From a virus (taxonomy: Duplodnaviria > Caudoviricetes), in IMG/VR virus record IMGVR_UViG_3300027657_000008, positions 1 through 31,081 of that record: a stretch of 31,081 nt of DNA; one strand, 5' to 3'. Below the pieces are notes generated by a model that ran no database searches, was not told where the DNA came from, and saw only the letters and a program-made list of their open reading frames with translations. The stretch's first letter is position 1. Each line of letters starts with the position of its first letter. The translations under genes were made by a program, and so were the position numbers. Below, piece after piece: positions 2,809 to 25,429 of the stretch.

Positions 2809-4095
2809 ATGCTGAAGGTACTACGCGAGAAGCGCGCCACGGCCATCGCCGATATGCGTGCCATTCTTGATCTGGCCGCGACCGAGAGTCGCGAGCTGAC
2901 CGAGGGTGAGACGAGCACTTTTGATGCCAAGCAAGCCGCTGTCGCCACTCTGGACGCCAGCATCGCCCGCGCCAGCACCCTCGAGACGCTGGAAGCTTCC
3001 CTGGCTGCCCCCGTCGCCTCCGTTGGCGCCCGCCAGCGCGTGACTGCCGCCCCCGGCCCAGAGGCCAAGCGCGAGTTTGAGTCCCTGAACGAGTTTATGG
3101 CCGCGGCCATCTGCAACCCGAATGACTCCCGTCTGGCCAGCCTGTACGCTGAGCAGCGTATGGACACCGGCGGTAAGGGCGGCTTCCAGGTTCCCCGCCA
3201 GTTCCTGAGCACCCTGCTGAAGGTGGACCCGCAGACCGCTATCGTCCGCCCCCGCGCCACCGTGCTGCCGGCCGGCAGTCCGCCTGATGCGGCGATCGAT
3301 ATTCCCGCCCTGGACCAGCGCACCGGCACTAACGCGAGCCCGGGCAATGTGTTCGGCGGCGTCACGTTCGCCAAGACGGACGAGGGTGGAGACAAGCCTG
3401 AGACCGATGTTGACTTCCGCATGATTACCCTGCAGCCTCAGGAGTTCTCTGGCCACATCGTCGCTACGGACCGTTTGCTCAACAACTGGTCGGCCGCTGG
3501 TGCGTTCTTCGAGAGTCAGATGCGCGCCGCGATGGTCGCCAAGGAAGACTTTGAATTCCTTCGCGGCAATGGTGTCGGTGGCCCCATCGGTGTCATTAAT
3601 GCCGGCGCGACCTACACTGTAGCGCGCGAGACCAATTCGCAGTTCACGCGGACCGATGTCAACAACATGGTCTCCCGTATCCTGATGCGCGAAGGCAACC
3701 CGGTGTGGGTGCTGAGTCGGTCGCTGATGCCTCAGCTCCTGAACATGCGCAACGAGATTGGCTCGCCGGCCGTCGGCGATGGCGCCCTGGTGTTCCAGCC
3801 TAGTGTGGTCCCGGGTATGCCTTCGATGTTGGCCGGCTTCCCGATCATCTGGAACGAGCGCAGCCCCGGCATCACTGCCAAGGGTACCGCGTTGCTGGCA
3901 GACTTCGGTAAGTACCTGGTCAAGGATGGCAGCGGCCCCTTCGTGGCTAGCTCCGAGCACGTGTACTTCCTGAAGAACAAGACGGCCATCAAGCTCTACT
4001 GGCTTGTCGATGGACAGCCTTGGCTGACCGAGCCCTTCGTGGGCGAGGACAACTATGAGGTCTCCCCGTTCGTCGCCCTTGGCGCCAACACGTAA
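2809..4095 (+). CDS. Major capsid protein, HK97 fold, with N-terminal coiled-coil scaffold (delta) domain
   Basis: Heptad-like N-terminus; GGFQVP, EGGDKPET, FLRGNGVGGP.GV, LAGFPI, LLADFGKY, SPFVAL; GGAG RBS at 2798-2801. Confidence 0.95.
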   Translation: MLKVLREKRATAIADMRAILDLAATESRELTEGETSTFDAKQAAVATLDASIARASTLETLEASLAAPVASVGARQRVTAAPGPEAKREFESLNEFMAAAICNPNDSRLASLYAEQRMDTGGKGGFQVPRQFLSTLLKVDPQTAIVRPRATVLPAGSPPDAAIDIPALDQRTGTNASPGNVFGGVTFAKTDEGGDKPETDVDFRMITLQPQEFSGHIVATDRLLNNWSAAGAFFESQMRAAMVAKEDFEFLRGNGVGGPIGVINAGATYTVARETNSQFTRTDVNNMVSRILMREGNPVWVLSRSLMPQLLNMRNEIGSPAVGDGALVFQPSVVPGMPSMLAGFPIIWNERSPGITAKGTALLADFGKYLVKDGSGPFVASSEHVYFLKNKTAIKLYWLVDGQPWLTEPFVGEDNYEVSPFVALGANT

Positions 4096-4105
4096 TAGCC
4101 GCAGT

Positions 4106-4125
4106 GGGGCCCCTGATGGGGCCCC
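4106..4125. repeat. GGGGCCCC-TGAT-GGGGCCCC perfect hairpin after capsid gene
   Basis: 8-bp all-GC stem with 4-nt loop between capsid stop and the GAGGA RBS (4126-4130) of the next gene; no U-tract. Confidence 0.7.
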
Positions 4126-4137
4126 GAGGAATCTAGA

Positions 4138-4506
4138 ATGAGTGCAAAACTGAGTGAGCTGGCCGTTGCGAGCCCCGCTGCGAGCTGGGTCAGCATGGAA
4201 AACTACCGCCAGGTGTCTGGCATCGCCGTTGTAGCGGATGCGGACACCGGCGAAACCGTGACAGTGCAGCTGCGGAAGGCAACGGATGCGAGCGGCACGA
4301 ACGCGACCAACTTCGGCACGGCCGTTGTTGTCACTGGCGCCGCGACCGACACCGATATTAGCGCGATCCAGACCGAGTGGAGCCAGGCTTTGGGTGCTCT
4401 GGCCGGCGTGCCATACACCCACGTGTCCGCAACCCTGAGCACGGGCGCGAGCCCCGAGACCGTGACGGGTGTTGTGCTCCGCAGTGAGCCGCGGTTCAGC
4501 GTATAA
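4138..4506 (+). CDS. Putative capsid decoration / virion protein
   Basis: 122 aa, beta-rich, A/T/V-rich; WVSM.NY and LRKATDASGT pattern typical of small genes following HK97 capsids; good RBS. Confidence 0.65.
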   Translation: MSAKLSELAVASPAASWVSMENYRQVSGIAVVADADTGETVTVQLRKATDASGTNATNFGTAVVVTGAATDTDISAIQTEWSQALGALAGVPYTHVSATLSTGASPETVTGVVLRSEPRFSV

Positions 4507-5275
4507 GTGTGTTCGACCCTACCTGGACCCAGGCACTAGGCGTCCGGTCCAGGTAGGGGCCACAGTCTATGGCGACCTTCCCCATTTAGTAGCGGCGGGG
4601 TTTTTAAGTCTCCTCCCCTCCCCCGCGTTACCCGCCGCTCCTTCTATCGTGTGGCCCGTGTGGCCGGTAGTCGTCTGCATCGCTACGGGGCCCAGCCTTA
4701 CCCGAGCCGATGCGCTGGCCCTGCGTCACCTACCAACTATCGCCGTCAACGATGCCTACCGCGTCGCCCCGCACGCGCAGATTCTCTACGCCGCCGATAA
4801 ATCCTGGTGGGACATGTACAACTGTTGCCCGGACTTTACAGGGCGGAAAGTGTCGCAGAATGTACAACCTGGACGCGGGTGGCCCACGGATGCAACAGTT
4901 GAGGTGCTGCGGAGCATCAAAGCGCCGGGTATGTCGCGCGACCCGGGAGTGTTGCACCGAGGGTACAACTCCGGGTATCAGGCGCTCAACTTGGCTTTAC
5001 TTTGCGAAGCGAAAATTGTAGTATTGCTGGGGTATGACTGCGGTCAACCGCTGGGGAGCCCGTCGCATTATTTCGGCGATCACCCCAACGGCCTGCAGAA
5101 ATGCTCCCCGTATGACCTGTTCCGCCGATCCTTCGCGGATGCGGCTCCGACAATCTCGGCCCGCGTTATCAACGTGAGTCGCCAGACTACGCTCGACTGT
5201 TTCGAGCGTATGAGCATCGGCAAGTGCTTGACCATTATAAAGAACTCGGGGGGCTCGTCTTACTCGGCGCAGTGA
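4484..5275 (+). CDS. Maf/DUF115-like (sialyltransferase-fold) putative glycosyltransferase with short N-terminal extra domain
   Basis: CIATGPSL, IAVNDAY, LYAAD..WW, NSGYQALNLA, VLLGYD, HYFGDHP, VINVS motifs of the DUF115/Maf/CstII-like group. Start uncertain (GTG 4484 chosen; 4469 or ~4650 possible). Confidence 0.72.
   Translation: MSRGSAYKCVRPYLDPGTRRPVQVGATVYGDLPHLVAAGFLSLLPSPALPAAPSIVWPVWPVVVCIATGPSLTRADALALRHLPTIAVNDAYRVAPHAQILYAADKSWWDMYNCCPDFTGRKVSQNVQPGRGWPTDATVEVLRSIKAPGMSRDPGVLHRGYNSGYQALNLALLCEAKIVVLLGYDCGQPLGSPSHYFGDHPNGLQKCSPYDLFRRSFADAAPTISARVINVSRQTTLDCFERMSIGKCLTIIKNSGGSSYSAQ
4517..4558. repeat. Perfect 13-bp inverted repeat
   Basis: CCCTACCTGGACC (4517-4529) / GGTCCAGGTAGGG (4546-4558), 16-nt loop, 10 nt after stop of decoration gene. 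Confidence 0.8.
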
Positions 5276-5496
5276 TCGGACTCGGTCAACTGCTGGCTAG
5301 CGGCGAGCGCATCACGGTTCGGCTGGCCATAGGCCGCGCCTTGTGCTCGGGCGGTCTCGGGGGCGCTGCCAGTAGCGCCCTGGTGGTGTGGCCGGACCTG
5401 CCACCCGCCGCCTTGCTTGGCATCGCGTGCGCCATTGCTAGCCTCGGGACTTCCCTCATTGAATCCATCTTCGCACGCATGGCCGGTGCGCGATGA
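5224..5496 (+). CDS. Holin, P2 gpY-like (Phage_holin_2)
   Basis: 90 aa, three hydrophobic segments; GERITVRLAIGR.L and WPDL resemble the GEPITPRL.IGR / FPDL pattern of P2 Y. Confidence 0.8.
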   Translation: MLDHYKELGGLVLLGAVIGLGQLLASGERITVRLAIGRALCSGGLGGAASSALVVWPDLPPAALLGIACAIASLGTSLIESIFARMAGAR

Positions 5497-5846
5497 GAGT
5501 CGAGTTGCACCCTGATGGCCGTCGCGCCACCCTGCTTGAGCCCATCGTTTGGGGCGATATTACCGTTCCCGCGGGATTTGTCACGGACTTTGCATCTGTC
5601 CCACGAGCCCTATGGATACTCATTCCTCCACAGGGTAGACACTCGTTCGCTGCTGTGGTCCACGATTGGCTATACCAGTCACAGCAGCTCACGAGACGTG
5701 AAGCAGATAGGCTATTCCGGCTTTCCCTCCTCGCTACTGGCAGCGGCAACTGCAAAGCGTGGGCGATGTACTTAGGAGTACGTCTGGGAGGCTGGGTAGC
5801 ATGGGGGAAACATGCGCGAAACCTGCACACATCTGGACCTGATTAA
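5493..5846 (+). CDS. DUF1353 family protein
   Basis: ITVPAGFVTDFASVPR, AAVVHDWLY, RREAD.LF, MY.GVRLGG signature; ATGA-coupled to holin. Confidence 0.9.
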   Translation: MRVELHPDGRRATLLEPIVWGDITVPAGFVTDFASVPRALWILIPPQGRHSFAAVVHDWLYQSQQLTRREADRLFRLSLLATGSGNCKAWAMYLGVRLGGWVAWGKHARNLHTSGPD

Positions 5847-7251
5847 AGACGGCAAGAACCGACGCAAGTGCAAAACTTGCGGTTATCGACCCACCCTTAC
5901 TAAATACCTGATTACTAGCGCTCAGAATGACACTCCGGTTCATCGGGGCTTTTGGGGCGCGCTTAAGACCTACGCGGCGGCCGAGGGCGCTACGCTACAG
6001 GTCATTCCGACCCGCTACCGTAATCCTGACAGTCACCACGAAGGAATTGCCGATGAGATGAGCTGGCCGGCAGAGGTCCTGCCGTACCTGGTCGATCGTG
6101 ATGTCAAGGTGCACCAACACCTGATGCTGATGGGAGACGCTAAGATCAACGCGACGGCCTCCGACCCGCTGAGCGGGATGGATAGCCTCAGCGGCGGTCG
6201 CAGCGCGGTGTACGGCCATGCGCAAGTTCAGATGCGCCTGGTACCGACCCCACGCCACGACCTTCCCCGCATCCTTCACACAACGGGCAGCTGCAGCATG
6301 CCCAACTATTCTCGATCCAAAGCCGGTAAAAAAGCTCTATTCCATCACAGCATCGGGGCCCTTGTAGTGGAGACCTGCGGCAACAGGTTCCACATGCGCG
6401 AGATTCTGGGCAGCGACGATGGTGCATTCTACGACCTCACCCGCCGGTATGATGTGACCGGCGTCACAGACGGACACAGTATATCTGCGCTAGTGCTCGG
6501 CGACGAGCACGTGAAGTTTATGGATGCCCAAGTGCGCCGTGCCACTTTTGGAACAGGGGGCATCGTCGAGACCCTGCGCCCCCAGGTGCTTGTGCGCCAT
6601 GACATGCACGATCACTACAGCGGCTCGCATCACCATGAAAACGATACACTTCTGAAGGTGGCGAAGGCCCATGCGGGCGACGATTGCGTGGAGTCCGAGT
6701 TGAATTTGCTGCGGGATCACATAGCCGCCACCACCCCGCCAGGGTCAATAAGTGCCATCGTCCAAAGCAATCACCATGACCACTTGCGTCAGTGGCTCAA
6801 CAGATTCGACGCCAAGCGCGACCCGGGGAACGCTCTGTTCGCGTGGGAACTCTACGGCCGCCTGGCCCAGGCGATACGCAACAAGGAGGATGCAGACCCT
6901 TTCCGCGTGTGGCTGAAGGCGAATCTGCCTGACGAGGTGAAGGGGCGGGTGGAGTTCCTTGACCCTGACCGGGCGCACCTTATCGGCGGGGTGGATGTGT
7001 CGCAGCATGGCGACAAGGGGCCCAACGGTAGCCGCCCTGGCATTGCAGGGTTCGCCCGGCTGACCCACAAAATGTTCCTGGGCCACAGCCACACGCCGGG
7101 TATCAAAATGGGCGCCTGGCAGGTCGGGGTCTCCGCCCCCGGCATGGGTTACGCGTCGGGGCTTAGCTCGTGGCTTGCCACGCATGGGGTGATCTATCCG
7201 TCCGGTAAGCGTGCCATGCTGCACATTATCGGCGGACACTGGCATGGGTAA
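5812..7251 (+). CDS. T5 A1-like protein (metallophosphoesterase-fold putative nuclease) with N-terminal Cys/His zinc-ribbon-like segment
   Basis: ITSAQNDTPVH..F, GHAQVQM, TTGSC..PNY..SKAG.KA.FHH, LVLGDEH, HD, SNH.DHL, HGDKGPNGSR, GHSHTP, SSW..TH, GKR; N-terminal CTH...KCKTCG. Confidence 0.78.
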   Translation: MRETCTHLDLIKDGKNRRKCKTCGYRPTLTKYLITSAQNDTPVHRGFWGALKTYAAAEGATLQVIPTRYRNPDSHHEGIADEMSWPAEVLPYLVDRDVKVHQHLMLMGDAKINATASDPLSGMDSLSGGRSAVYGHAQVQMRLVPTPRHDLPRILHTTGSCSMPNYSRSKAGKKALFHHSIGALVVETCGNRFHMREILGSDDGAFYDLTRRYDVTGVTDGHSISALVLGDEHVKFMDAQVRRATFGTGGIVETLRPQVLVRHDMHDHYSGSHHHENDTLLKVAKAHAGDDCVESELNLLRDHIAATTPPGSISAIVQSNHHDHLRQWLNRFDAKRDPGNALFAWELYGRLAQAIRNKEDADPFRVWLKANLPDEVKGRVEFLDPDRAHLIGGVDVSQHGDKGPNGSRPGIAGFARLTHKMFLGHSHTPGIKMGAWQVGVSAPGMGYASGLSSWLATHGVIYPSGKRAMLHIIGGHWHG

Positions 7252-7435
7252 GTGCCCCCTGCCACTATGGACTGCAAGTGCAAAACGTGCCAATGCGATG
7301 GTAGCAGCGCGCCATGCGATCGGGCTCCCGATCAAGCCGTGCGACCCCAAGCGGGGCTCGGCTACTTTGGCTCGCATCACGGTCGATTGCGATAACATGG
7401 TCCGTGCAATGGATGAGCTGCTGAAAAAGATGTAG
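7244..7435 (+). CDS. Hypothetical protein (63 aa)
   Basis: ATG overlapping the A1-like stop region; fills the operon gap; no recognisable motif. Confidence 0.45.
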   Translation: MGKCPLPLWTASAKRANAMVAARHAIGLPIKPCDPKRGSATLARITVDCDNMVRAMDELLKKM

Positions 7436-7441
7436 CCGCGG

Positions 7442-7473
7442 CATGGGGCCCTGGGTTACCCTGGGGCCCCATG
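7442..7473. repeat. 14-bp GC-rich hairpin covering the 7471 start codon
   Basis: CATGGGGCCCTGGG-TTAC-CCTGGGGCCCCATG: 12 Watson-Crick plus 2 G-U pairs. Confidence 0.7.
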
Positions 7474-7671
7474 ACTCTTGACGAATTCATTCCCGCCGTT
7501 CGTGCCACCATACCAGACGTGGCAATCCAATTGACCAAGGAGCAGTTGCTGGACGATGACCGGCCGATTGCTATCTTCGCCCTGGGTAGTCGCACGGTCT
7601 CTATCGGTGCTCGAGTGCACCTGGACGCTGAGTTAGTCGCCTGGCTGGTACGCGAATTGCTTCCCTTGTAG
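7471..7671 (+). CDS. Hypothetical protein (66 aa)
   Basis: ATG-started ORF with protein-like composition in operon direction. Confidence 0.55.
   Translation: MTLDEFIPAVRATIPDVAIQLTKEQLLDDDRPIAIFALGSRTVSIGARVHLDAELVAWLVRELLPL
7646..7661 (+). promoter_or_regulatory. Candidate sigma54 promoter upstream of glycosyltransferase/methyltransferase cluster
   Basis: TGGTACGCGAATTGCT; GG 7647-48, GC 7659-60; perfect TTGCT -12 box; 14/16 identical to the motif at 26401-26416. Confidence 0.65.
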
Positions 7672-7723
7672 ACGTGGAGAGTCTAGGAGTACCCTGGGCC
7701 CACAAGAAGAAGGGGAGACTGAG

Positions 7724-7870
7724 ATGATCGCTTGCGAACGTCAGACTAACGACCTGTGGTGCGTCATTACGCACTCCGCCATGCATACCGACCTGACGCG
7801 CTGGCAGGCCGCGGGCATCCTGCGCGCCCTGGGCCTCCTGCCTTGCCGTATCGCAGAGGTGCTGCGGTGA
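7724..7870 (+). CDS. Small hypothetical protein (48 aa, MIACERQTNDLWCVITH...), below ORF-track cutoff
   Basis: GGGGAG RBS upstream; stop overlaps next GTG start (GTGA). Confidence 0.6.
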   Translation: MIACERQTNDLWCVITHSAMHTDLTRWQAAGILRALGLLPCRIAEVLR

Positions 7871-8595
7871 GAGTCCTCTACGACCCGCGCGCTACGGGCC
7901 CGAGTTGTCTCGCCGTAGCGCGCGCGCTAGGGCGCCCTGAGGCTTACGTGGGGCAGCCGATCGGCCCCGAGGGCGCGGCGTTCTTCGGTACCCCGACATT
8001 GCTCCCGCTGGCTTTGGCTATGCAGGCCGCGGGTACGCCATTTGTCTACGTGGATCATGGCTACATCCGCAAGTCTGGTGTCTACCGCATGACGCGTAAT
8101 GCGCTGCAGGTGACGCAGTGGGGCAGAGCAACGCGCCGCTATCCAGGCATCATGGCACCCTGGCGCCCGTGGGGTGAGCACGTGCTGGTATGCCCCCCAG
8201 AGACCGGCCACGCTGCAATGCTAGGCGTGGACTCGGCAGCGTGGCTGCAACTGGTGCTGGGGGCCCTGGCGGTCCATACAAGCCGCCCCGTGAGGGTGCG
8301 GCCCCGCAATTGCCCCGAGCCCCTGGCACAGGACTTGCAAAACTGCTGGTGTCTGGTGACGTGGACCAGCAATGCGGCAGTTGATGCCATTCTCGCGGGG
8401 ATACCGGCGATATGCACGGGGCCCTGCGCCGGGGGCATCATCAGCAGCCGGCGGATACAGGATATTGAGAGCCCCCACATGTCGCGCGTGCGGCAAGACT
8501 GGGCGGACTGGCTAGTTAGCAACCAATGGAGTTTAAAGGAATGCAATTTAACGAGCCTACGGGGTGGTGGCTGCCCGATGGGGAGACCCACCTAA
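7867..8595 (+). CDS. Putative glycosyltransferase (GT-B-like, capsule-synthesis/KpsS-like C-terminus)
   Basis: FVYVDHGY, PWR..GEHVLVCPP, HTSRPVRVRPR, L..DL.NCWCLVTWTSNAAVDAILAGIP; start GTG 7867 by coupling. Confidence 0.65.
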   Translation: MRVLYDPRATGPSCLAVARALGRPEAYVGQPIGPEGAAFFGTPTLLPLALAMQAAGTPFVYVDHGYIRKSGVYRMTRNALQVTQWGRATRRYPGIMAPWRPWGEHVLVCPPETGHAAMLGVDSAAWLQLVLGALAVHTSRPVRVRPRNCPEPLAQDLQNCWCLVTWTSNAAVDAILAGIPAICTGPCAGGIISSRRIQDIESPHMSRVRQDWADWLVSNQWSLKECNLTSLRGGGCPMGRPT

Positions 8596-9272
8596 TTGAA
8601 TGGATGACGGTTAGTAAGCAGAAGTGCGACGGCGGGCGGCTTGGCTACCAGATGCACAAGCTTAACCGCTGCATGGCCGAGGCGCCGGCGCATCGCAGGC
8701 GTGTGGCCGTAGACGTGGGCGCCCATGTGGGCCTGTGGTCCTGGCCGTTGGCGCACCGGTTCGGTACAGTGCACGCGTTTGAGCCCATGCCCGAGCATCA
8801 GGATTGTTGGTACGCCAACATGGGGCAGCATTCAGCGGCCATAGAAATGCCGCAGCTGGCGGTTGGGGCGGAAACGGACGTACCCGCGCTTAACGCCTTG
8901 TTGCATGGGGTCGCGTTAGGCGAGAACATTCGCCCTGTGCGAATCGCGACCCGCACACCGGGGAGTAGCGGTGATACTGGGGTCGACGTTAGGGGGCTCG
9001 AAGTGGAGATGCGCACTTTAGATAGCTTCGAGCTTGATAAAGTGGACTTTATTAAGGTCGACACGGAAGGCTATGAGCCGTTTGTGATCGATGGCGCACG
9101 CGAGACTATCGCCCGGTGTCGGCCCGCGTGCATAGTGGTCGAGCAGAAACCCGAGACGGGAGGGGCGCAGCGCTACGGGACGACGGTCACTGCAGCGGTG
9201 GAATTGCTCGAGACGATGGGGTACCGCAAGGCTGCGGTGTTGCAAGGCGACTACATAATGGTGCCGCGCTGA
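8541..9272 (+). CDS. FkbM-family SAM-dependent methyltransferase
   Basis: VDVGAHVGLWS, VHAFEP, VALG, MRTLDSF, VDFIKVDTEGYEPFVIDGA, VVEQ; GGAG RBS favours ATG 8541 (8526 alternative). Confidence 0.92.
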   Translation: MQFNEPTGWWLPDGETHLIEWMTVSKQKCDGGRLGYQMHKLNRCMAEAPAHRRRVAVDVGAHVGLWSWPLAHRFGTVHAFEPMPEHQDCWYANMGQHSAAIEMPQLAVGAETDVPALNALLHGVALGENIRPVRIATRTPGSSGDTGVDVRGLEVEMRTLDSFELDKVDFIKVDTEGYEPFVIDGARETIARCRPACIVVEQKPETGGAQRYGTTVTAAVELLETMGYRKAAVLQGDYIMVPR

Positions 9273-9991
9273 TGGGGTACGGTGATGAGATCATGGCGGC
9301 GGGGCATGCCGAGTCGATGGGCCACCCCGTGCGCATCGTGGGCACACGGGGGGAGATTCGCTGGCACCCGCTGTGGGAGGGCAACCCGTTCATCACACGC
9401 CGGCTGTCCGATCCGGCGATACGCAATGGCCCCGGGTGCCGTCCCTATCTGGTGTACCCGTTCACGCACGCCGGGGGCGCACACTTCACCGGCTGGCGCG
9501 CCCGGGATCACCGGGGGCGGCTGTACGGCATAGAGCCCGGGTGGCTGAGCGGCCTGGTGGTCATCGAACCTAACCTTGCGTCCGACGGCAACCCCAACAA
9601 GCGCTGGCCCATGGAGCGCTGGCAAGCTGTGGTCGATGCGCGCCCCGACCTACCGTGGCTGCAGATGTCTGGGCCACACATGTTGCGCGGGGTGCAGCAA
9701 GTGCGGCCTCGGACCTTCGTGGACGCGTGTGCGCTCCTGGCCGGGGCGAGGGCGGCCCTGGTACCTGAGGGCGGCCTGCATCATGCTGCAGCGGCTTTGC
9801 AGGTTCCCGCGGTTGTCTTGTTTGGGCAGCACACGCCGCTCGAGGTCACAGGGTACCCAGAGCACATCAACCTAACGGGGGGCGACGGGGAGGCGTGCGG
9901 CAAGTGGCTGCCGTGCGACCATTGCGCGCGAGTGATGGATCGGATAACCGTGGAGGAAGTACTCAATGCGCTGGATTACGTTACTGATTAG
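9272..9991 (+). CDS. Glycosyltransferase family 9-like (heptosyltransferase fold)
   Basis: MGYGDEIM, NPFI, NKRWPMERWQAVV, EGGLHHAAAALQVPAVVLFG, C..C.HC...MDRITVEEV; TGATG coupling to FkbM. Confidence 0.88.
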   Translation: MGYGDEIMAAGHAESMGHPVRIVGTRGEIRWHPLWEGNPFITRRLSDPAIRNGPGCRPYLVYPFTHAGGAHFTGWRARDHRGRLYGIEPGWLSGLVVIEPNLASDGNPNKRWPMERWQAVVDARPDLPWLQMSGPHMLRGVQQVRPRTFVDACALLAGARAALVPEGGLHHAAAALQVPAVVLFGQHTPLEVTGYPEHINLTGGDGEACGKWLPCDHCARVMDRITVEEVLNALDYVTD

Positions 9992-10793
9992 CCTGATGGC
10001 GGCCCCGGCGTGGGCGGACGGGCCCTGGGTCATGGACGCCGGCACCGCGACCCGTACGGTCACAGCCACACATGGGTGGATGCCGGGTGCCGCGCCGGCG
10101 GGCTTCCCGGGCTCCGCGCCCCTGCAGGCCTCGCCGGATATGGGGCTCAATGCAGAGACCGGTACGCCGGCGCTTAGCTTTGCGTGGACGCCGCCTTCGC
10201 CCGGCACCTATTACGTGTGGCTGGTCGGCTGGGCCAAGGGCGGGGCGGCGGACACAGCAGTCGTGGGGCTCAACGGCGCCAGGCTGTCTCGGGTTGCCTT
10301 TACGCCACTCCGGCAGTGGACGCGGTCTAAGCCGGTGCCCGTCACGGTCGGCGCGACCCCGGTAAGCATTGATGCGCATATGCGCGAGGACGGACTGTGG
10401 CTGGCGCAGTTGGTTATCACGCGCGAGCCGGTGTGGGAGGCGCCAGACCCCGACGGCGACACCGGGGAGCACTCTTTCCCGCTTGTGTTCACCTGGCGCC
10501 AACCTGACGTGGCCGATTTTCCCTCCATGACTTGGCGGCTACGGTACAAACTGGGCGGCCAGGACTACGTGCACATCCAGGGTATTGAGCAGCAGCGCTA
10601 TGAGCGGTCAGTATTGGCCCTTCCTGATACAGAGCTGACAGCCTGGGTCAGAGCGTGTGAGCCTAAAGGTTGTTCCGCATGGTCGCTACCTGTGACCGTG
10701 ACGCTAGAACTCCCGGTGGACGAGGTCGATCCGGACGCTGGCACGGGTGATGCAGAGATACCAGTGGAGCTTAGTATTCAACTGGTGAACTGA
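9966..10793 (+). CDS. Secreted protein: signal peptide + carbohydrate-binding-like beta-sandwich + FN3-like domain
   Basis: MRWITLLISLMAAPAWA signal peptide; GTYYVWLVG...DTAVVGLNG...MREDGL pattern; C-terminal FTW..P, WRLRY, VRAC...GCSAWS.PV. Confidence 0.7.
   Translation: MRWITLLISLMAAPAWADGPWVMDAGTATRTVTATHGWMPGAAPAGFPGSAPLQASPDMGLNAETGTPALSFAWTPPSPGTYYVWLVGWAKGGAADTAVVGLNGARLSRVAFTPLRQWTRSKPVPVTVGATPVSIDAHMREDGLWLAQLVITREPVWEAPDPDGDTGEHSFPLVFTWRQPDVADFPSMTWRLRYKLGGQDYVHIQGIEQQRYERSVLALPDTELTAWVRACEPKGCSAWSLPVTVTLELPVDEVDPDAGTGDAEIPVELSIQLVN
10739..10754 (+). promoter_or_regulatory. Candidate sigma54 promoter upstream of membrane-protein cluster
   Basis: TGGCACGGGTGATGCA; GG 10740-41, GC 10752-53; ~40 nt before ATG 10795. 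Confidence 0.55.
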
Positions 10794-10794
10794 A

Positions 10795-11067
10795 ATGCAC
10801 TACACTGGCACGCACTTGAGCATACACACCTCAGATGAGGGTATCACCGTGTGGATTGGCGAGTATCACTGCCACACTCCCGGCTGCTGGATTGCACCCG
10901 CGGCGGCCGTAGTGGCCGCCCTGGCCGGCGGGTTTGCCGCTTGGGCCTGGCTGGATGCCCCTGAGCTAGGCGTCTTCGCCGGTCTCGCGGCCGGCTGCAC
11001 AGCCTATGCAGTGGGGGAGGCCGTAGCATTCGAGCGGAGGATTCGCCGCGTCCGCGGGAAGATGTAG
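10795..11067 (+). CDS. Hypothetical membrane protein (2 TM)
   Basis: Two hydrophobic segments, basic C-terminus. Confidence 0.6.
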   Translation: MHYTGTHLSIHTSDEGITVWIGEYHCHTPGCWIAPAAAVVAALAGGFAAWAWLDAPELGVFAGLAAGCTAYAVGEAVAFERRIRRVRGKM

Positions 11068-11339
11068 TGGTAGGGCAACCGAAGCCGCGCATTCACGCGC
11101 GCACTACTGGCTACACGCTCGCGCATCTTAAGGCGGACTTACGCGAGCATGAGGCCAGAACGCATGCTGAATTTACCGAGATGCACGCGCGTTTGGACAA
11201 GTTGGCAGAGGAATTCCGCATGTCACTGGAAAAGCGTGTGTCTCTGGACCGGTATCGGCCAGTCGAAATGCTGGCCTTCGGTGCCATAACGCTAATTTTT
11301 GGCGCTTTAGCTGCTTTCGTACTGGGAGTACTGCGATAA
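11067..11339 (+). CDS. Coiled-coil protein with C-terminal TM anchor
   Basis: Helical charged N-part then RYRPVEMLAFGAITLIFGALAAFVLGVLR; stop/start coupled both sides. Confidence 0.65.
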   Translation: MVGQPKPRIHARTTGYTLAHLKADLREHEARTHAEFTEMHARLDKLAEEFRMSLEKRVSLDRYRPVEMLAFGAITLIFGALAAFVLGVLR

Positions 11340-11542
11340 TGTTTGACGCTTACATCACCGGGGGCAAGGTGCTCAACATCCTACCCCAAGAGTTCTCGGC
11401 GAAGCTCCCGCGGCCTTACGCAGAGTTGAGCCCGCTGGAATATGACTACTGGGTGCGGGACCTATCGTTGAACCTGGCGCACAAACTGCGCGAACGGCTT
11501 GCCGCGTTGCGCCCAGGGGGCGGCCATGCGCCAAGGGCCTGA
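11339..11542 (+). CDS. Hypothetical protein (67 aa)
   Basis: GGGAG RBS, TAATG coupling. Confidence 0.6.
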   Translation: MFDAYITGGKVLNILPQEFSAKLPRPYAELSPLEYDYWVRDLSLNLAHKLRERLAALRPGGGHAPRA

Positions 11543-11654
11543 GATCACTTGGCGTAGTGTTGTGGCGTTATGCGTGGCCGGCGCGATGTGCCTGTATGTG
11601 TGGTATTTGCTCTGGTATATTCTCGGCGCACTCTGGTATATGATCGCCGGATGA
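11526..11654 (+). CDS. Small hydrophobic peptide (42 aa, MRQGPEITWRSVVALCVAGAMCLYVWYLLWYILGALWYMIAG), below ORF-track cutoff
   Basis: AGGGGG RBS; ATGA overlap with next gene start 11651. Confidence 0.62.
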   Translation: MRQGPEITWRSVVALCVAGAMCLYVWYLLWYILGALWYMIAG

Positions 11655-13252
11655 CCGCACATATCCGCACGTGGGCCTCACCGGTGGGCACGGCTACGGC
11701 CGCCACTGTAACGCTTGATGGGCCCCGTGTGGCTCCGGGCAACCTGCTCCTGGCGGTAGTGGCTCACGCTCGAGCCTACGCCGCCCCGCTACTCCCGCCC
11801 CCCGGGTGGGTTCTGCTACAGCGCATCCCGGTCGGTGGCGTCCAGGGTAACCTGGCCGCTGCCGTCTACGCTCGCACCGCCACCGGTGAGGAAACCGAGG
11901 CTACCTTTACTTGGCGCCAAGGTTTCCTCGCCTCCGCCGGCGGCGCGGCGGCCTTCGGAGGTGCTAGCGACGCGCTGTACAGCAGCGAGACTGGCCTGGC
12001 CGGGTGGACCCTGGGCCAGGGTAGCAGTATAGACACCTGGCGCCGCACTATCTGGGTGCCAGAGCTGGAGCAGTATGTGAGCGTCGGCGGCGGCACCGCG
12101 GTTGGCTTGGTGCAGACGAGTCCCGACGGTATCGTGTGGGCGCGGCGCGTCGTGGCGAGCGGTGCGTGGAATGACGTTACTTGGAGTCCTGAGCTGGGAC
12201 TGTTGGTCGCAGTGTCCGGCACAGGTGTCGGGCGCGTCATAACGAGCCCGGACGCTGTGACCTGGACCGAGCGCACCGCTGCAGCGTCCTTGGACTGGCG
12301 TGGCGTGGCGTGGGCCAGCGACATCGGCCTGTTTGCGGCCGTGGGCATTCCCGGGGGCGCCATGACAAGCCCCGACGGGGTGACCTGGACATCCCGCACG
12401 ATGCCAAGCGCTGTCAGCTGGCGCATAGTGCGCGCTACGTCAGGGCGGTTTGCCGCGGTAGCCAGCGCTGGCACCGGGGTGAGGGCAGCCACCAGTACCG
12501 ATGGAATCACCTGGGCCTCGGGCGACATCGCAACTAACAAAAACTGGCAGGGCTTGGCGCGCGCTCCGGACCTGGGACTGTGGCTGGCTTCCGCCAGCAG
12601 CGCGGGTGGCGCTCCCACCGCACTCATGGCCACGAGCCCCGACGGAGTGACGTGGACCAGTCGCACGGGCGCTATTGATCAGCGTTGGGACGCCTTGGAG
12701 TGGGCGGAGGAGCTAGGTCTGGCCGTAGCGGTGAGCAGCGATCCGACCAACCTGGCGCTTAATAAGGTCCAGACCAGTCCCGACGGGGTGACCTGGACGC
12801 AGGTAGCGGGTACTAGCGGCGGACAATGGACGAGTGTCACGTGGCGTCCCGGAGCTAGCGCTCCCGTCGCCGTCGTGCTAGAGTACAGTCGCGTCCAGGT
12901 CGCGGCTATAGCTGCGTCCGCAGATGATGATACCCGCTCCGCAACGCCAGCAGCCACGCAGCCGACCGGTACTGCCGCGGCGCCCGGGCCTGGGCTCGCA
13001 GTGGCGCTCCTGGCCGTGATGGGCGCCGGCTGGGATGACGCGTCAGTCAGTATCAGTGCTGGCTATGAGATCACCGAATTGGTGCGTGTCGGGGTGATCA
13101 CTGTCGCCGCGGCCGAGCGCGCAGTAACTGTGGCCGGCGACCAGACCGCTACCTGGTCCGCGGTCAACGCCGGGGGCCCCACGTACGGGGCGCAGCTAGC
13201 AATAACGCAGGGACCATCCGGGCTCATCGTGGCCGCGGTAGGGAGCCGATGA
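11651..13252 (+). CDS. Putative virion (head-associated) protein with ~7-blade Asp-box/BNR beta-propeller inserted in a beta-rich domain
   Basis: Six S[PT]D[GA]..W repeats plus one degenerate, ~43-aa spacing; flanks GNLLLAVV..PPGW..YARTATG.E...TFTW and VVLEYS.V; start ATG 11651 by coupling. Confidence 0.75.
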   Translation: MTAHIRTWASPVGTATAATVTLDGPRVAPGNLLLAVVAHARAYAAPLLPPPGWVLLQRIPVGGVQGNLAAAVYARTATGEETEATFTWRQGFLASAGGAAAFGGASDALYSSETGLAGWTLGQGSSIDTWRRTIWVPELEQYVSVGGGTAVGLVQTSPDGIVWARRVVASGAWNDVTWSPELGLLVAVSGTGVGRVITSPDAVTWTERTAAASLDWRGVAWASDIGLFAAVGIPGGAMTSPDGVTWTSRTMPSAVSWRIVRATSGRFAAVASAGTGVRAATSTDGITWASGDIATNKNWQGLARAPDLGLWLASASSAGGAPTALMATSPDGVTWTSRTGAIDQRWDALEWAEELGLAVAVSSDPTNLALNKVQTSPDGVTWTQVAGTSGGQWTSVTWRPGASAPVAVVLEYSRVQVAAIAASADDDTRSATPAATQPTGTAAAPGPGLAVALLAVMGAGWDDASVSISAGYEITELVRVGVITVAAAERAVTVAGDQTATWSAVNAGGPTYGAQLAITQGPSGLIVAAVGSR

Positions 13253-13896
13253 GCAACTATTGGACACACTATGACCGGATGCCCGAGCGCTGGCAGACGG
13301 TGCGCGCACAACCGCCGGTCACGGCGCTCATGACGCTGGCCGAGGCGCGCTCGCACCTGCGCCTGGACGCCTGCGACGGCACGCACCCGGACGACGCGCT
13401 GGTCACGCTGCTCATTGCCGCGGTCACCAGCGAGCTGGATGGTGTGGACGGGTGGCTCGGCCGCGCACTGCAGCCACAGGCCTACCGGCTGATCCTGGAC
13501 CGGTTTCCTTGCTACCGCGATCGCATCCGATTGCCCATGACCAGTCCGCAGACTCCTGGCGTTATGCCCATCACGCATGTGCGCTACCTGGACGACGAGG
13601 GCATCACGGTAGACCTGGACGATTGGGTTGTGGCCGTAGCCAGCGATCCAATCTACCTACTGCCGGCGCCCGCCACCGCGTGGCCGGACGTGCGCTGCCA
13701 GCCGGGCGCCGTCGAGATTCTGTACGACGCTGGGTACGAGTCGATCCCGGAAATGATCCGCGCCTACGCCAAGGTGCGGCTTGGGCAACTGTACGAATTC
13801 CGTGAGTTAGTCGTGGCCGGCGTCAGCATCGCGCCTGTGCCGTACCTGCTAGATAGCCTGGAGAACTTCCGGGCTCGCTGGCACTCGCCGGTATGA
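13249..13896 (+). CDS. Head-tail connector / adaptor (HK97 gp6, phiE125 gp8-like)
   Basis: TLAEARSHLRLD, DDALV..LI.A, GRAL..Q, LDRFP, VEILYDAGY, LYEFRE. Confidence 0.9.
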   Translation: MSNYWTHYDRMPERWQTVRAQPPVTALMTLAEARSHLRLDACDGTHPDDALVTLLIAAVTSELDGVDGWLGRALQPQAYRLILDRFPCYRDRIRLPMTSPQTPGVMPITHVRYLDDEGITVDLDDWVVAVASDPIYLLPAPATAWPDVRCQPGAVEILYDAGYESIPEMIRAYAKVRLGQLYEFRELVVAGVSIAPVPYLLDSLENFRARWHSPV

Positions 13897-18779: not shown

Positions 18780-19597
18780 GTGCCAACCCGCTCTACCGCG
18801 TCATGTGCCTACGCATCGAGGCCCTGGGTGGCCTTGAGGTGCGGCTTACTGCGCACCCGCGGGACCTGGTCATAGCTGGCAGTCCGGCTGTCACTTACCT
18901 GACTGCTAGCGGCTACCAGTTCACCGGATTCAGTGCGGCCAGTACTTCCAGTCCCGCGATGGTCGACCTGGAAGGCATCGCCGGTGTGGCCGGGATTGAC
19001 CGCGATACGGTGGCTAGCGGCGTGTTTGATGGTGCCCGCGCCTTCTTGTTCGCGACCACATGGCACACGCCCATCGAGGACGAGGAGCCCATCACTAGCT
19101 CCATCATGGGCAAGACCACCCTGAGCGACGAGCGGTACCGCATCGAGGAAATGGCCCTGGTGGACGCGCTGAACCAAACCGTGGGGCGCACCTACCAGCC
19201 GACCTGCTACAAGGAGTTCGGCGGCCAGGAGTTCGCCGGGTGCAAGATTGACCTTGGGCCCATCACAGTCACAGGTACGCTCACGCACGTCGGCCCGGTG
19301 CGCGACAGCACCCGAGGTGAGGTGGCGGACTATTTCGCCTACGGCACCATCGCGCTCACCAGCGGGCCCAACGCCGGCCTCCCGCCGCTGGAGATCAAGA
19401 GTTACGCCGCGGACGGGACGATAGTCACGTTCCAGCCATTCCACTACGCGGCGCAGGTAGGTGACACGTACACCATGATTCCGGGATGCCGCAAGCGGCT
19501 AGTAGACTGCCGCGACAAGTGGGACAACGTGGTGAACTTCGGGGGCTTCACATTCGTCCCGATTGGCTCCAAGTACTCGCAAGTGGGCAATAAATAA
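18776..19597 (+). CDS. Tail hub protein, DUF2163 / BR0599 family (GTA-type)
   Basis: T.HPRDL, G.FDGA, LNQTVGRTYQPTC..EFG...CKIDL, GDTY..IPGC.K...DC..KW.NVVNFGGF.FVP. Confidence 0.92.
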   Translation: MSANPLYRVMCLRIEALGGLEVRLTAHPRDLVIAGSPAVTYLTASGYQFTGFSAASTSSPAMVDLEGIAGVAGIDRDTVASGVFDGARAFLFATTWHTPIEDEEPITSSIMGKTTLSDERYRIEEMALVDALNQTVGRTYQPTCYKEFGGQEFAGCKIDLGPITVTGTLTHVGPVRDSTRGEVADYFAYGTIALTSGPNAGLPPLEIKSYAADGTIVTFQPFHYAAQVGDTYTMIPGCRKRLVDCRDKWDNVVNFGGFTFVPIGSKYSQVGNK

Positions 19598-20139
19598 TGG
19601 ATTTTAGCCGCCCATGGACGATCTTTGCCGTTGATGCTGAGTATGAGGCCTACGGCGCCTCGCGAATCGTGAAAGCGCATAATGACAGTTGCAGGATGGT
19701 GCGCTCCCCGATTGAGCGCATCCTACCGGCGCACATGTGCACCCCGGCCGCCCTGGTCATGCTGCAGGCTATCGGGCTCCAGGAGTCGCGCATGGAGCAC
19801 CGGCGCCAGCTAGGCGACGGCCCCGCCCGCGGCCTGTGGCAGTTCGAGATGGCCGGCGTGCGTGGCGTCATGACTCACCGGGCCTCCGAGCGTTGGGCCC
19901 GGGCCGTCTGCGTGTTACGCGACGTGCCACAGGAAGCCGCCTTCGTGTGGTCGCGACTCGAGCATGATGACCTGCTAGCGGCATGCTTCGCGCGCTTGCT
20001 GCTCTGGACTGATCCAAAGCCCCTGCCACGCATGGGTGACCAGCATGCCGCATGGCAGCTGTACCTGCGCACCTGGCGCCCCGGTAAGCCGCATCCGGAG
20101 ACCTGGGCGGCGCTATACGAGCAAGCATGCGAATTGTAG
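19597..20139 (+). CDS. Lysozyme-like protein, putative endolysin
   Basis: AIGLQES (candidate catalytic Glu), RRQ..DGPARGLWQFE, FARLLLWTDP.PLP, Y.RTWRPGKP. Start could be later (GTG 19669 or ATG 19696). Confidence 0.72.
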   Translation: MDFSRPWTIFAVDAEYEAYGASRIVKAHNDSCRMVRSPIERILPAHMCTPAALVMLQAIGLQESRMEHRRQLGDGPARGLWQFEMAGVRGVMTHRASERWARAVCVLRDVPQEAAFVWSRLEHDDLLAACFARLLLWTDPKPLPRMGDQHAAWQLYLRTWRPGKPHPETWAALYEQACEL

Positions 20140-23500: not shown

Positions 23501-23715
23501 TGGGCGAGACCAGCGAAGCCTATGAGGTGGACGTGTTCTCGGGGTCGGTGATAGTGCGCACTCTGAGTGCATCTACACCTACGGTCGCGTATACTAGTGC
23601 GCAGCAAGTAGCGGACTTTGGGTCAGACCAGGGTACGCTGTCTGTGCGCGTCTACCAACTGAGTAGCACTGTCGGCCGCGGGCGGCCCCTCATCGAGAGC
23701 ATCACGCGTGGCTAA
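20506..23715 (+). CDS. Central tail / host specificity protein (GTA megatron-like, Phage-tail_3)
   Basis: GPRLSDL.VQT..YG..IPR.YGT, FAVGLCQGPI, PAY.GLAYIVFE, ALEPL, LEPADVI, LLRGRFGSE, WTRRTR, PLGE.SE.YEV. Confidence 0.92.
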   Translation: MSSAGQALGGVVGAVAGFFVGGPQGALYGAQLGLAVGGALDPPKGPNIQGPRLSDLTVQTATYGAVIPRAYGTIATHGNVFWLQGDALTEVAAKSTQGGKGGGPSSSVTSFSYFATFAVGLCQGPIAGIRRIWIGPDLFYDAGSGDLETILASNAAAEGFTLYLGTESQAPDPLIQADRGAADTPAYTGLAYIVFEQLALADYGNTLQAAQVKVEVIQVATLEGLTLLAEETQEYTPYTVTGGVGAGSGVPYNGYAGFARPDHIRWYLPDWDNSTPPNPRQFYVYDVRPGNITFDGVRAVNRVAAQESPPVLTDSTELYYGSINELFSPPPTQLSNFGALQGRVRGTWAAVTSTRSGVHAAYLAPIGTPAAFFQIAGIATAGAVEVTEAGDVYYFDASGARRFDSSGALVDTVAFAFDIPTTSVEQPRAYLSDDGNIYLNTRFATASQLYRISQDLTSIALVGNVAHVFNASGDDNYDITVEDGVFARFCVNSNAGATDIKTAWFSLAGVAGDLVPLADIVEAECLQSALLTAGDLYTSELTQLVRGYKVGTVAALRAALEPLQGAYPFDIVQSGYQIAFRVRGRAPVATVTADELDARGGSDQPGQRLTILREMDTQLPRTVSLGYLDVEREYDTSEQSTDRISTESVNRRSLEFALVLDADEAAQRAEVLLWLYWLERYDLRFTLPDTYLDLEPADVITIQHPDATYEARITAITYTADQRLECHAKLNDTPLYTSTALGDRGDSTETVIALEGPSEYVLVDGPTLLDSLDAPGVLGAMHGFSAAWPGGTIHQTRDSGTTWPVLGAFAGPVPMGNAFNPIGAPDAFWVVDEENVLRATIIQGALESVTLLQMLNGANHFAYGAAGRWEIIAAQTCTQGADGSWTLQGLLRGRFGSEWAAGLHGIGDTLVLLTDADVQFLGLPLVTRGVLTQTRGITAGATIDTDDDRDFTYNAENLLPLSPVYLNGSRHPTTRDWTLTWTRRTRIGGEWMDFVDAPLGETSEAYEVDVFSGSVIVRTLSASTPTVAYTSAQQVADFGSDQGTLSVRVYQLSSTVGRGRPLIESITRG

Positions 23716-25429
23716 CAGCACCACAAACCTAGACCAGCTAGTCCAGTCCCAGGCGTCCAAGGAAGTAACGGCTAACGCGCTCTGGGACGCCATGAGCCAG
23801 GCCGCTACCTACGGGCGCAGGGCCAGCACTACATCTGGGCTCACGTGGGGCTTCTATGGCGGTAATGTAGTTGTCAGCAGCGGCGCCTACGTAGCGGTGG
23901 CCAACGGTACTTTGACGCTGACTGCCAGTGCGACTAACTACATTGTCGCGCTGAAAGCCGACGGGGTGGTTAGTTTCGCGACCGTCAGCACCAACTGGGA
24001 CAATGTTACCGACTATTGGCGCTTGTACAGGGTAGTTACTGGCACGGCCACAATTACCAGTTACACCGATGATCGCCAAAGTAGCTTTCTCGCGGTCTCG
24101 GGGAATGGTAATGGTGCAGCGGCGGTTGTGATTGTGCCTGACGGCACCGAGCGCACCATCACTGAGTCCCAGACCTACCACGCGCAGGCCAGCGCCGAGG
24201 ACAACGACTGGCACGCGCTGGCGTGGAGCCAGGAGCTCGGGCGCTGTGTGGCGATCGCGCGCTCGGGCACCAACCGAGTCATGTATTCAGATGACGGCAT
24301 CACGTGGGTGCCGGCTACGGCCAGCAACAACCGCGACTGGCGCGACGTGGTGTGGGCGGACACCCTGGGACGGTTCGTGGCCGTGGCGTTTGACGGTGCC
24401 GCTGCGGGGCAGGTTATGACCAGTCCCGACGGGGTGACGTGGACCGACCGCACGTCCTCGTTGGCAACCCAGTGGGGAGGGCTAGCGTGGGCGCGGGCGC
24501 TCGGGCGGCTAGTGGCAGTTGCGGAGTCTGGCGCTAATCGTGTCATGACCAGCGAGGATGGCATCACGTGGACCAGCCGCACGGCCGCCGCTGCCAACAC
24601 TTGGCGTGACGTGGACTGGAGCGCTGAGCTGGCGCTGTTCTGTGCTGTGAGCAGCACCGGTACCGCCAATCGCGTCATGACCAGTCCAGACGGTATCACG
24701 TGGACCAGCCGCAGCACGTCGGGTAATGACAATTTCTGGTCTGGGGTGGTATGGGGTGCCTACGCTGGGGTGTTCGTAGCCGTGGCACAGAGCGGCACCA
24801 ACCGTGTACTTACGAGTCCTGACGGCATCACGTGGACCGGGCGCACCGCTGCGGCAGCGCAGCAATGGTACAAGGTCACGTGGGCGCCGGAGATCGGTTT
24901 GTTCCACGCGGTCCACCTGGACTCGGTGGCCACGAGTATGACCAGCCGCGATGGCATTACCTGGGCTAGTCGTACCGCAGCCACAGCCAACGCCAAGCGG
25001 CGTAGCGTGTGGTGTGCCGGGCTCGGCATGTTCATCGTGACGGCAAGCGCAGGCGTAGGTAACCGTGTCGAAACCAGCGCTGGGTACGTAGGCGTGTACA
25101 CCCCGACGCTATTTGCCGTGGCCAATGTGGCCGCGAGCACGGCATTTCCTATGCGATGGGAGCGGCGCGGCAAGAATGTGATGGTCTACGGCCAGGTTAA
25201 CATCCAGGCGACTGCAGGTGCTACGAACACTCAGCTAGGCGTAAGCCTGCCATTGAGCGCTACCTTCGCCGCCGAGGACATGCTATCTGGGTCTGCTACT
25301 GCGGGGTTCGCTACGGTCGCAGGTAGCTACGTGGCGGACACAAGCAACGCACGGGCGGAGTTCCGCTATCTCAGCGAGTCCACCATCAACCGCGCTATGC
25401 GCGGCTCCTTCAACTACAGGTTGACCTAA
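23708..25429 (+). CDS. Tail fibre / receptor-binding protein with Asp-box beta-propeller
   Basis: N-terminal SQASKEVT.N anchor (DUF2793-like); six S.DG[IV]TW repeats plus one partial; C-terminal YTPTL...RRGKNV.VYG..LP fibre-tip-like domain. Confidence 0.82.
   Translation: MANSTTNLDQLVQSQASKEVTANALWDAMSQAATYGRRASTTSGLTWGFYGGNVVVSSGAYVAVANGTLTLTASATNYIVALKADGVVSFATVSTNWDNVTDYWRLYRVVTGTATITSYTDDRQSSFLAVSGNGNGAAAVVIVPDGTERTITESQTYHAQASAEDNDWHALAWSQELGRCVAIARSGTNRVMYSDDGITWVPATASNNRDWRDVVWADTLGRFVAVAFDGAAAGQVMTSPDGVTWTDRTSSLATQWGGLAWARALGRLVAVAESGANRVMTSEDGITWTSRTAAAANTWRDVDWSAELALFCAVSSTGTANRVMTSPDGITWTSRSTSGNDNFWSGVVWGAYAGVFVAVAQSGTNRVLTSPDGITWTGRTAAAAQQWYKVTWAPEIGLFHAVHLDSVATSMTSRDGITWASRTAATANAKRRSVWCAGLGMFIVTASAGVGNRVETSAGYVGVYTPTLFAVANVAASTAFPMRWERRGKNVMVYGQVNIQATAGATNTQLGVSLPLSATFAAEDMLSGSATAGFATVAGSYVADTSNARAEFRYLSESTINRAMRGSFNYRLT

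Follow-up and report, generated by a model that had tools for sequence, protein, structure and literature searches.

The window analysed here, a whole stretch of 31,081 nucleotides (IMG/VR record IMGVR_UViG_3300027657_000008), is a 31-kb part of the genome of an HK97-type siphovirus and carries genes for terminase, portal, S49 protease, capsid, neck and tail proteins and a family A DNA polymerase. The seven top-ranked matches of the polymerase belong to phages of Proteobacteria (36-40% identity), the majority of the 345 matched records being from other hosts. Downstream of the capsid gene lie four genes, here called A to D, for three predicted glycosyltransferases (A, B and D) and a predicted methyltransferase (C), in which a first-pass annotation had seen a candidate system for virion glycosylation (Table 1). 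Its description of the locus stands: all four open reading frames (ORFs) are present on the plus strand, they lie between the capsid and neck genes, and the last three are coupled, with B and C sharing 55 nt (ATG of C at 8541, stop of B at 8595) and C and D joined by a TGATG at 9272. A contiguous four-gene operon in this phage had to be rejected, as A is set 2.6 kb from B-C-D by a holin gene (5224-5496), a DUF1353 gene (5493-5846), the gene of a 479-aa phrog_1745 protein (5812-7251) and short ORFs; a further 3.2 kb of other genes separates D from the head-tail adaptor gene. The close relative L253 has the same arrangement, insert included, and homologs of the insert genes were found in none of the loci L001-L252. 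A scan of positions 4000-11700, whose match counts were at chance level, found no plus-strand sigma-70 promoter.

Table 1. Features of the locus, with positions counted from the first letter of the window
Feature	Positions	Strand	Basis
Gene A, Maf/CstII-fold glycosyltransferase with N-terminal extension; predicted initiating protein O-ulosonyl (3-deoxy-D-manno-octulosonate, Kdo) transferase	4484..5275	+	phrog_4603, AlphaFold2 model
N-terminal extension of A; may be a small post-capsid domain of DUF7210-like type and serve as a head-targeting tag	4484..4625	+	weak similarity to D3 orf6.5
Gene B, KpsC/WbbB-like beta-Kdo-transferase fold; predicted inverting CMP-ulosonate transferase	7867..8595	+	AlphaFold2 model, structure matches
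Gene C, FkbM-family S-adenosylmethionine (SAM) methyltransferase; predicted glycan O-methyltransferase	8541..9272	+	PF05050, TIGR01444
Gene D, compact GT9 (WaaC/WaaF-like), 239 aa; predicted ADP-heptose transferase	9272..9991	+	PF01075, profile matches
Major capsid protein, HK97-type, candidate acceptor	2809..4095	+	PF05065 E 9e-31, phrog_10
Small post-capsid protein, putative decoration protein, candidate acceptor	4138..4506	+	phrog_28483 (unknown function)
Insert splitting the module in the window phage (holin, DUF1353, phrog_1745 protein), not part of the module	5224..7251	+	Pfam/PHROG matches
Head-tail adaptor, downstream boundary of the interval	13249..13896	+	phrog_442 E 6e-19

Predicted activities of the four gene products

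The family labels of the first-pass annotation were borne out by profile matches for A (phrog_4603, E 2.9e-35), C and D, B showing only a weak match to DUF6716 (E 0.021), and the glycosyltransferase folds that it had expected are found in the predicted structures of A and B. Gene A encodes 263 residues and has no Pfam match itself, while its homologs carry PF01973. In its AlphaFold2 model, built from 119 sequences, the predicted local distance difference test score (pLDDT) is 84, with residues 1-33 mostly below 50, and a catalytic domain of about 190 residues begins near residue 61. The best structural match of the model is the Maf protein of M. magneticum (5MU5; Z 15.2, root-mean-square deviation 3.2, 183 residues aligned), followed at lower scores by HPPK (Z 11.2), CstI (Z 11.0) and other sialyltransferases; a Foldseek search with the same model was noisy and ranked Maf seventh (E 2.6e-3). 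An assignment as an MptE kinase was rejected on its lower Z and on genomic context. Three residues, D105 (119/119), S163 (111/119) and D185 (118/119), are conserved at distances of 58 and 22 residues, resembling by spacing, without a residue-level alignment to Maf, the 62 and 23 residues between D272, S334 and D357 of CbMaf, which the accessible text of 10.1101/2020.06.03.131540 describes as essential. A shares its predicted catalytic fold and the approximate spacing of three putative catalytic residues with Maf enzymes (5MU5, CbMaf, GkMaf), for which Kdo is an accepted donor, attached to Ser/Thr in E. coli according to the same accessible text (10.1101/2020.06.03.131540), and we predict from the model that A is a protein O-ulosonyl (Kdo) transferase catalysing the initiating step. 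Unlike Maf, A is encoded by a phage, within a head operon and with putative extending enzymes downstream, and it consists of the catalytic domain only: just residues 263-520 of the 632 in 5MU5 align with it, the multidomain architecture and flagellin-binding region of Maf being absent and apparently replaced by a small phage domain.

The model of B (242 residues, pLDDT 91) resembles beta-Kdo transferases over its own full length, namely KpsC (6MGD, Z 10.7 with 203 residues aligned; 6MGB, 10.5 with 216), WbbB (9.7 with 208) and KrkA (8.8 with 197), and Foldseek likewise finds these enzymes (E 2e-6); the remaining top structural matches cover about half of this span of roughly 200 residues. Profile alignment places D63 of B, kept in 133 of 134 sequences, at the general base Glu66 of KpsC, for whose catalytic residues we rely on the accessible part of PMC10148158. 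The QxxxD nucleophile (Asp160 in KpsC) is missing, its column holding F/Y/W and H115 in the window, and the HP region reads R-x-K. B is therefore not a member of GT107, and the double-displacement mechanism described for KpsC (GT107), WbbB (GT99) and KrkA, which are 60-150 residues longer, is impossible for it. Since two of the three catalytic residues of KpsC are lacking, the donor assignment of B rests on its fold, from which we infer that it may be an inverting CMP-ulosonate transferase. In sequence databases the B profile matches 5282 clusters at 50% identity with almost no Pfam signal, DUF6716 being weakly matched by 59 of the 134 family members; the B alignment yielded no usable pattern, and locus scans of viral contigs queried with B alone or A alone gave no match. 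When the B model was compared with a viral library, four proteins of Tetraselmis virus 1 were seen to share its fold (E 1e-13 to 2e-6).

C exceeds the cut-offs of both PF05050 (69 versus 22.7 bits, E 6.7e-19) and TIGR01444 (71 versus 37.7 bits) and contains the SAM motif DVGAHVG; no PDB match was found by sequence. D exceeds the cut-off of PF01075 (38 versus 22 bits, E 1.4e-9) and by profile search matches WaaC (E 8e-6) and WaaF (4e-5), far under the equivalog cut-offs of TIGR02193 (28.6 versus 185 bits) and TIGR02195 (22.8 versus 135 bits). With WaaC and WaaF (GT9) it shares the donor-binding C-terminal half, in which a CxxxxxCxHC motif is conserved, and an N-terminal GxGD motif present in the alignment, but with 239 residues against 326-348 its N-terminal acceptor domain is shortened.

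Recurrence of the module in viruses

A search with D yielded 416 viral loci, of which 95, chosen by similarity and including the best 80, were examined and collapsed into 65 groups at 70% identity; 31 of these were dropped for short flanks, leaving 34 whose flanks reach 4 kb or more upstream and 2 kb or more downstream. Within 6 kb of D and on the same strand, A is present in 27 of these dereplicated loci, B in 30, C in 31 and all three in 26. Wherever A occurs it comes first (27/27), the commonest orders being A-B-B-D-C (13 loci) and A-B-C-D (11), and the fusions A+B, A+C and B+A+C occur among the loci. The four-gene grouping is more than chance: the families occur together in related viruses, usually in a single block, and constitute one conserved module, in keeping with the co-functioning gene group first proposed. 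Of the 34 loci, 29 adjoin co-oriented genes for virion or packaging proteins (24 by custom profiles, 5 more by Pfam). Remoteness from the replication genes, part of the earlier argument, is not general, as four lie in replication arms. In the D tree, a quick tree of 108 rows that is midpoint-rooted for drawing and from which the direction of transfer is not readable, the window belongs to a clade of 28 rows (Shimodaira-Hasegawa-like approximate likelihood ratio 99), in 21 of which, counting the window, A, B and C are all present.

Around this set the gene content varies. Scans of 84 and 30 proteins identified GT8-like proteins, TylF and other methyltransferases, sulfotransferases, a hexapeptide acetyltransferase, a radical SAM protein and a Kdo-hydroxylase-like protein; in L081 a Kdo-hydroxylase-like match precedes D (E 1.4e-6 over 30 aa). 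A GT-A family is found in 14 of the 34 loci and is absent from the window. Of the records of cultured phages, 73 were matched by A, 17 by B, 26 by C and 15 by D, and that of S20 shows a nine-gene block between the capsid and head-closure genes. Homologs of A (phrog_4603, 29-36% identity) are P1 PmgO/PmgP (P7 HdmB/HdmC), D3 orf7, PAJU2 ORF010 and CcrColossus gp126-gp131, all of them uncharacterised. P1 and P7, where A goes by the name pmgO/hdmB, as well as D3 and PAJU2, have A without matches to B or D in the stretches examined, and in D3 it stands between capsid and adaptor; in the late region of CcrColossus, A, two B genes, a GT-A gene, a methyltransferase gene and D are placed between the tail and the lysis genes, with FkbM elsewhere. 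A is the common core, to which exchangeable downstream enzymes are added, and the window phage may accordingly be a mosaic. Compared with window positions 2975-4572, L257, another close relative, is about 82% identical overall and fully identical over the start of A, which suggests a recent exchange of the A segment.

A small post-capsid domain joined to A in relatives of the window phage

For the upstream region of A, 152 loci were reduced to 99 representatives at 80% identity with at least 900 nt upstream, and in 54 of them a custom profile detects a capsid gene no more than 2.5 kb upstream. In 23 representatives no in-frame ATG, GTG or TTG precedes the first conserved strand; 21 of these start-less genes are overlapped by a small ORF lying upstream in the frame from which a -1 shift would lead into A, and five by one in the other frame. 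A canonical XXXYYYZ heptamer in the -1 phase is present in 12 of the 23 against 6 of the 76 others (Fisher p 1.3e-5), heptamers in the other two phases numbering 4 and 3. CCCTTTG is exactly where the A frame of S20 opens, and in D3 a CCCAAAG lies seven codons before the domain. We conclude that in these relatives A is probably joined to the small post-capsid protein by a -1 frameshift. The slippery sites are followed by weak RNA structure (mean z -1.17 across 19 sites), and seven further loci have no heptamer. Where the small protein meets A, a clade of four loci (L080, L181, L223, L229) carries AAACCCN instead of a canonical slippery site.

The small protein begins with a beta-beta-helix-Gly pattern of about 45 residues. 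Four of the 23 frameshift-type domains match DUF7210 (PF23843; best E 2e-4) and five match phrog_2616. In-frame fusions of the domain to A exist as well: among eight in-frame N-termini tested against a profile built from frameshift-type domains only, those of P0145, L196 and P0101 score (0, 4 and 26 of 1000 shuffles), and those of P0073 (78), P0107 (125), the window (174), P0058 (339) and P0235 (430) do not. In the window itself, no frameshift heptamer in a usable phase lies upstream of A, and its extension gives no profile match, no BLASTP match to the L196 extension and nothing usable in the ESM Atlas; a profile from five in-frame N-terminal extensions recovered its own seeds only. A similarity to D3 orf6.5 (BLASTP E 0.001; 3 of 2000 shuffles, the best of 29 comparisons) is suggestive, though no more, of a head tag of the same kind in the window. 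L253 and L257 are identical to the window over the extension, so that synonymous changes were unavailable for a test. In the ESM Atlas, the small domain of L080 finds unnamed viral clusters and DUF7210 (0.88), all under the bar of the tool; also under that bar are its alignments to the N-terminal ends of viral GT4 and GT2 proteins, a hint that viral glycosyltransferases may generally bear such a tag. In the lineage of L014 (7301-7663 and 8363-9307), L018 and L025, another small post-capsid domain has been duplicated onto B or A.

A proposed virion glycan and competing explanations

What might such a module do for the phage? We think it rather probable that it glycosylates the virion, most likely the head, with A placing Kdo on Ser/Thr, B and D extending it, C methylating the product and the host supplying the donors, where we infer both acceptor and donors. 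The module would be transcribed late, together with the head-tail operon, and the small N-terminal domain would dock A on the procapsid or capsid, as a partner or domain of Maf does for flagellin. With CMP-Kdo of the host as donor, A would attach Kdo to Ser/Thr of the capsid or decoration protein; in either order, D, like WaaC acting on Kdo, would add heptose taken from ADP-heptose and B would add a further ulosonate with inversion, and C would O-methylate the glycan from SAM. In relatives, this glycan would be varied by a GT-A enzyme, by additional methyltransferases, by sulfotransferases, by an acetyltransferase or by a Kdo-hydroxylase-like protein. As acceptors, the capsid protein and the small protein following it are candidates; the latter has 24.6% Ser+Thr, the highest among 25 window proteins counted, its gene shares 23 nt with the start of A, and it could have a decoration role. 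The head is implicated by the small post-capsid domain to which A is joined in relatives, and the record annotations of A homologs read 'structural protein' in PAJU2 and 'head morphogenesis' for hdmB of P7. In lambda, gene FI occupies the post-capsid slot, and binding of the small domain to heads is what we presume by analogy to its product. The accessible text on gpFI describes it as a packaging chaperone that bridges capsid and terminase (PMC13595911). As Maf enzymes require a flagellin-binding domain or partner (10.1101/2023.12.03.569772, accessible part), a targeting role of the small domain is plausible.

CMP-Kdo and ADP-heptose are the donors for the lipopolysaccharide (LPS) core in most Gram-negative bacteria, which fits the presence of A in P1, a phage of E. 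coli K-12. A CMP-ulosonate synthetase was found in one of 30 virus records (one of the six near-complete ones) and in none of five records of another set, four of which overlap the 30; this near-absence points to donors from the host. The first-pass annotation had proposed LPS or flagellar sugar donors of the host; the host origin is upheld and the flagellar sugar is not, the beta-Kdo-transferase fold of B pointing to CMP-Kdo. The benefit would probably be a protective masking of the particle, likelier than a role in assembly since pmgO and pmgP of P1 are nonessential for plaques in the accessible text of PMC10695390; pmgO, pmgN and pmgP go unmentioned in the main text of the P1 virion-proteome paper (PMC9024508). 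A precedent, in which glycosyltransferases of the phage itself are proposed to coat proteins of the capsid or tail, is the capsid and tail-tube glycosylation of the mycobacteriophages Che8, Corndog and Myrna (Freeman 2023, cited in the accessible part of PMC12363180). The present module is set apart from it by enzyme family (Maf-like, KpsC-like, GT9 and FkbM) rather than by sequence comparison, by the predicted Kdo and heptose and by hosts that are Gram-negative judging from the nearest relatives.

Several observations weigh against head glycosylation. The fold of A is common to HPPK (Z 11.2) and to sialyltransferases of glycans (Z 11.0), its GTG start at 4484 has no clear ribosome-binding site, and B lacks two of the three KpsC catalytic residues. 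The extension in the window is only weakly tied to the small-domain family and is unstructured in the model, with a pLDDT below 50, and no entry for gpFI, the presumed analogue, is among the PDB matches of the small-domain profile. The loci were chosen by similarity (the best 80 of 416 for D, the best 80 of 556 for A); four of the 34 D loci (L050, L060, L076 and L099, the last three one clade) are the ones in replication arms, and in L065 the module runs opposite to its head genes. Among the nearest 21 groups of A with enough flank, B is present in four, C in three and D in none. Finally, D and B have cellular homologs and so can act on non-virion acceptors. A search of genomes with D returned 71 loci, some in prophages and others cellular, including B-D pairs in Verrucomicrobia; one such pair (L126) adjoins an epimerase and a cytidylyltransferase-like/HAD gene, types typical of ADP-heptose synthesis. 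Cellular rows (26 of 108) are scattered among the viral ones in the D tree with at least six changes, which argues for exchange between cells and viruses.

The foremost alternative is a remodelling of the inner core of host LPS, or of another envelope glycolipid, during infection or lysogeny. A to D would then serve superinfection exclusion or receptor masking, as befits the resemblance of B and D to enzymes acting on Kdo/heptose glycolipids, the cellular B-D pairs beside heptose-pathway-like genes, the reading of pelagimyophage glycosyltransferases as O-chain modifiers in the accessible part of PMC7029224, and the integrase present in 8 of the 30 records, with many genome matches being prophages. 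Yet the module lies inside a late operon without a promoter of its own, A invariably leads the order and is attached to a small post-capsid protein that would be superfluous for envelope work, its best match is a protein glycosyltransferase, and a tyrosine integrase is absent from three of the six near-complete records; we therefore regard this explanation as unlikely. Quite improbable, in our view, is a modification of host flagellin or pilin by A, extended by B to D, that disables or masks a phage receptor. The known acceptors of Maf are flagellins, A homologs occur in Caulobacter and Pseudomonas phages, and the receptors of such phages are often pili or flagella; A, however, is without the flagellin-binding regions of Maf, and its extra domain is a phage post-capsid protein.

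We expect still less a hypermodification of phage DNA by the module, in which a Kdo/heptose glycan would protect against nucleases. Phage glycosyltransferases do place Kdo and heptose from host donors on 5-hydroxymethylcytosine (5hmC), and according to the accessible text of 10.1101/2023.12.21.572611 some such clusters lie near structural genes, as here, so that position alone cannot dismiss DNA as the acceptor; the four loci in replication arms and the packaging-chaperone role of lambda FI (PMC13595911), whose gene has the post-capsid slot, could be read in the same way. However, the pathway needs a hydroxylated base, made by a 5mYOX together with a C5-methyltransferase or by a thymidylate-synthase homolog, and T4-beta-GT-like or GT-A DNA enzymes, which were not found with the module. 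PF00303 was matched in none of the 30 records and none of the six near-complete ones (control 10/14), most records being incomplete; PF12851 was likewise matched in none of the 30, with a control that was silent too. No base-hydroxylating gene was found in the window, itself an incomplete genome, and the structural matches listed for A and B do not include the T4 beta-GT. Least of all do we expect that A and B-C-D are two unrelated cassettes in the window phage, or that the A extension is untranslated, in a cargo hot-spot behind the capsid gene. The 2.6-kb insert between A and B, the other partners of the nearest A relatives and the holin, DUF1353 and phrog_1745 cargo in the same interval would fit, but 21 of the 28 rows of the window's D clade carry A, B and C, and A+B, A+C and B+A+C fusions exist.

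The literature searched, from which subscription papers were largely missing, holds no description of the module or of glycosylated virions in a proteobacterial phage, virion glycosylation being documented in the accessible part for mycobacteriophages only. The present analysis adds a predicted beta-Kdo-transferase fold for B, counts of the four-gene synteny and, throughout the A family, a probable frameshift or a fusion to a post-capsid domain. If virion glycosylation is correct, a function would be found for long-unexplained 'morphogenetic' genes such as pmgO/pmgP of P1 and orf7 of D3, expectations for the encounters of particles with antibodies, lectins, proteases and host defences would change, and the module would become a source of new small protein Kdo- and heptosyl-transferases. 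A broader scenario, which we offer tentatively and hold to be rather doubtful, is that hundreds to thousands of Gram-negative phages, D3 and the Caulobacter jumbo phages included, wear an LPS-core-like Kdo/heptose coat on their heads; a stripped-down Maf would be steered to the capsid by a gpFI-like tag and dosed by programmed -1 frameshifting, and swappable enzymes would diversify the coat like a serotype locus.

Some neighbouring genes and distant homologs deserve mention in their own right. In marine Alphaproteobacteria (L108, L110 and L111), cellular D homologs follow a gene for a pyridoxal phosphate-dependent class I/II aminotransferase, with FkbM in some, a setting that is possibly one of glycolipid synthesis. 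The 479-aa insert protein of the window matches phrog_1745 ('DNA transfer protein', E 1.7e-133) and has no Pfam match and no PDB match by sequence; it contains an N-terminal CxxC and the motifs GDEH, HDMHDH, NHH and GHSH, which presumably reflect a resemblance to calcineurin-like metallophosphoesterases. The lysis genes look scattered, holin and DUF1353 (5224-5846) standing directly after A and a gene at 19597-20139, endolysin-like by appearance (phrog_3108, unknown function), amid the tail genes. Two Ser/Thr-rich proteins, encoded just before the adaptor (11570-13252, 18%) and at the tail end (23708-25429, 21%), contain repeated S-x-DG-x-TW motifs and are possible beta-propeller appendages and further acceptor candidates.

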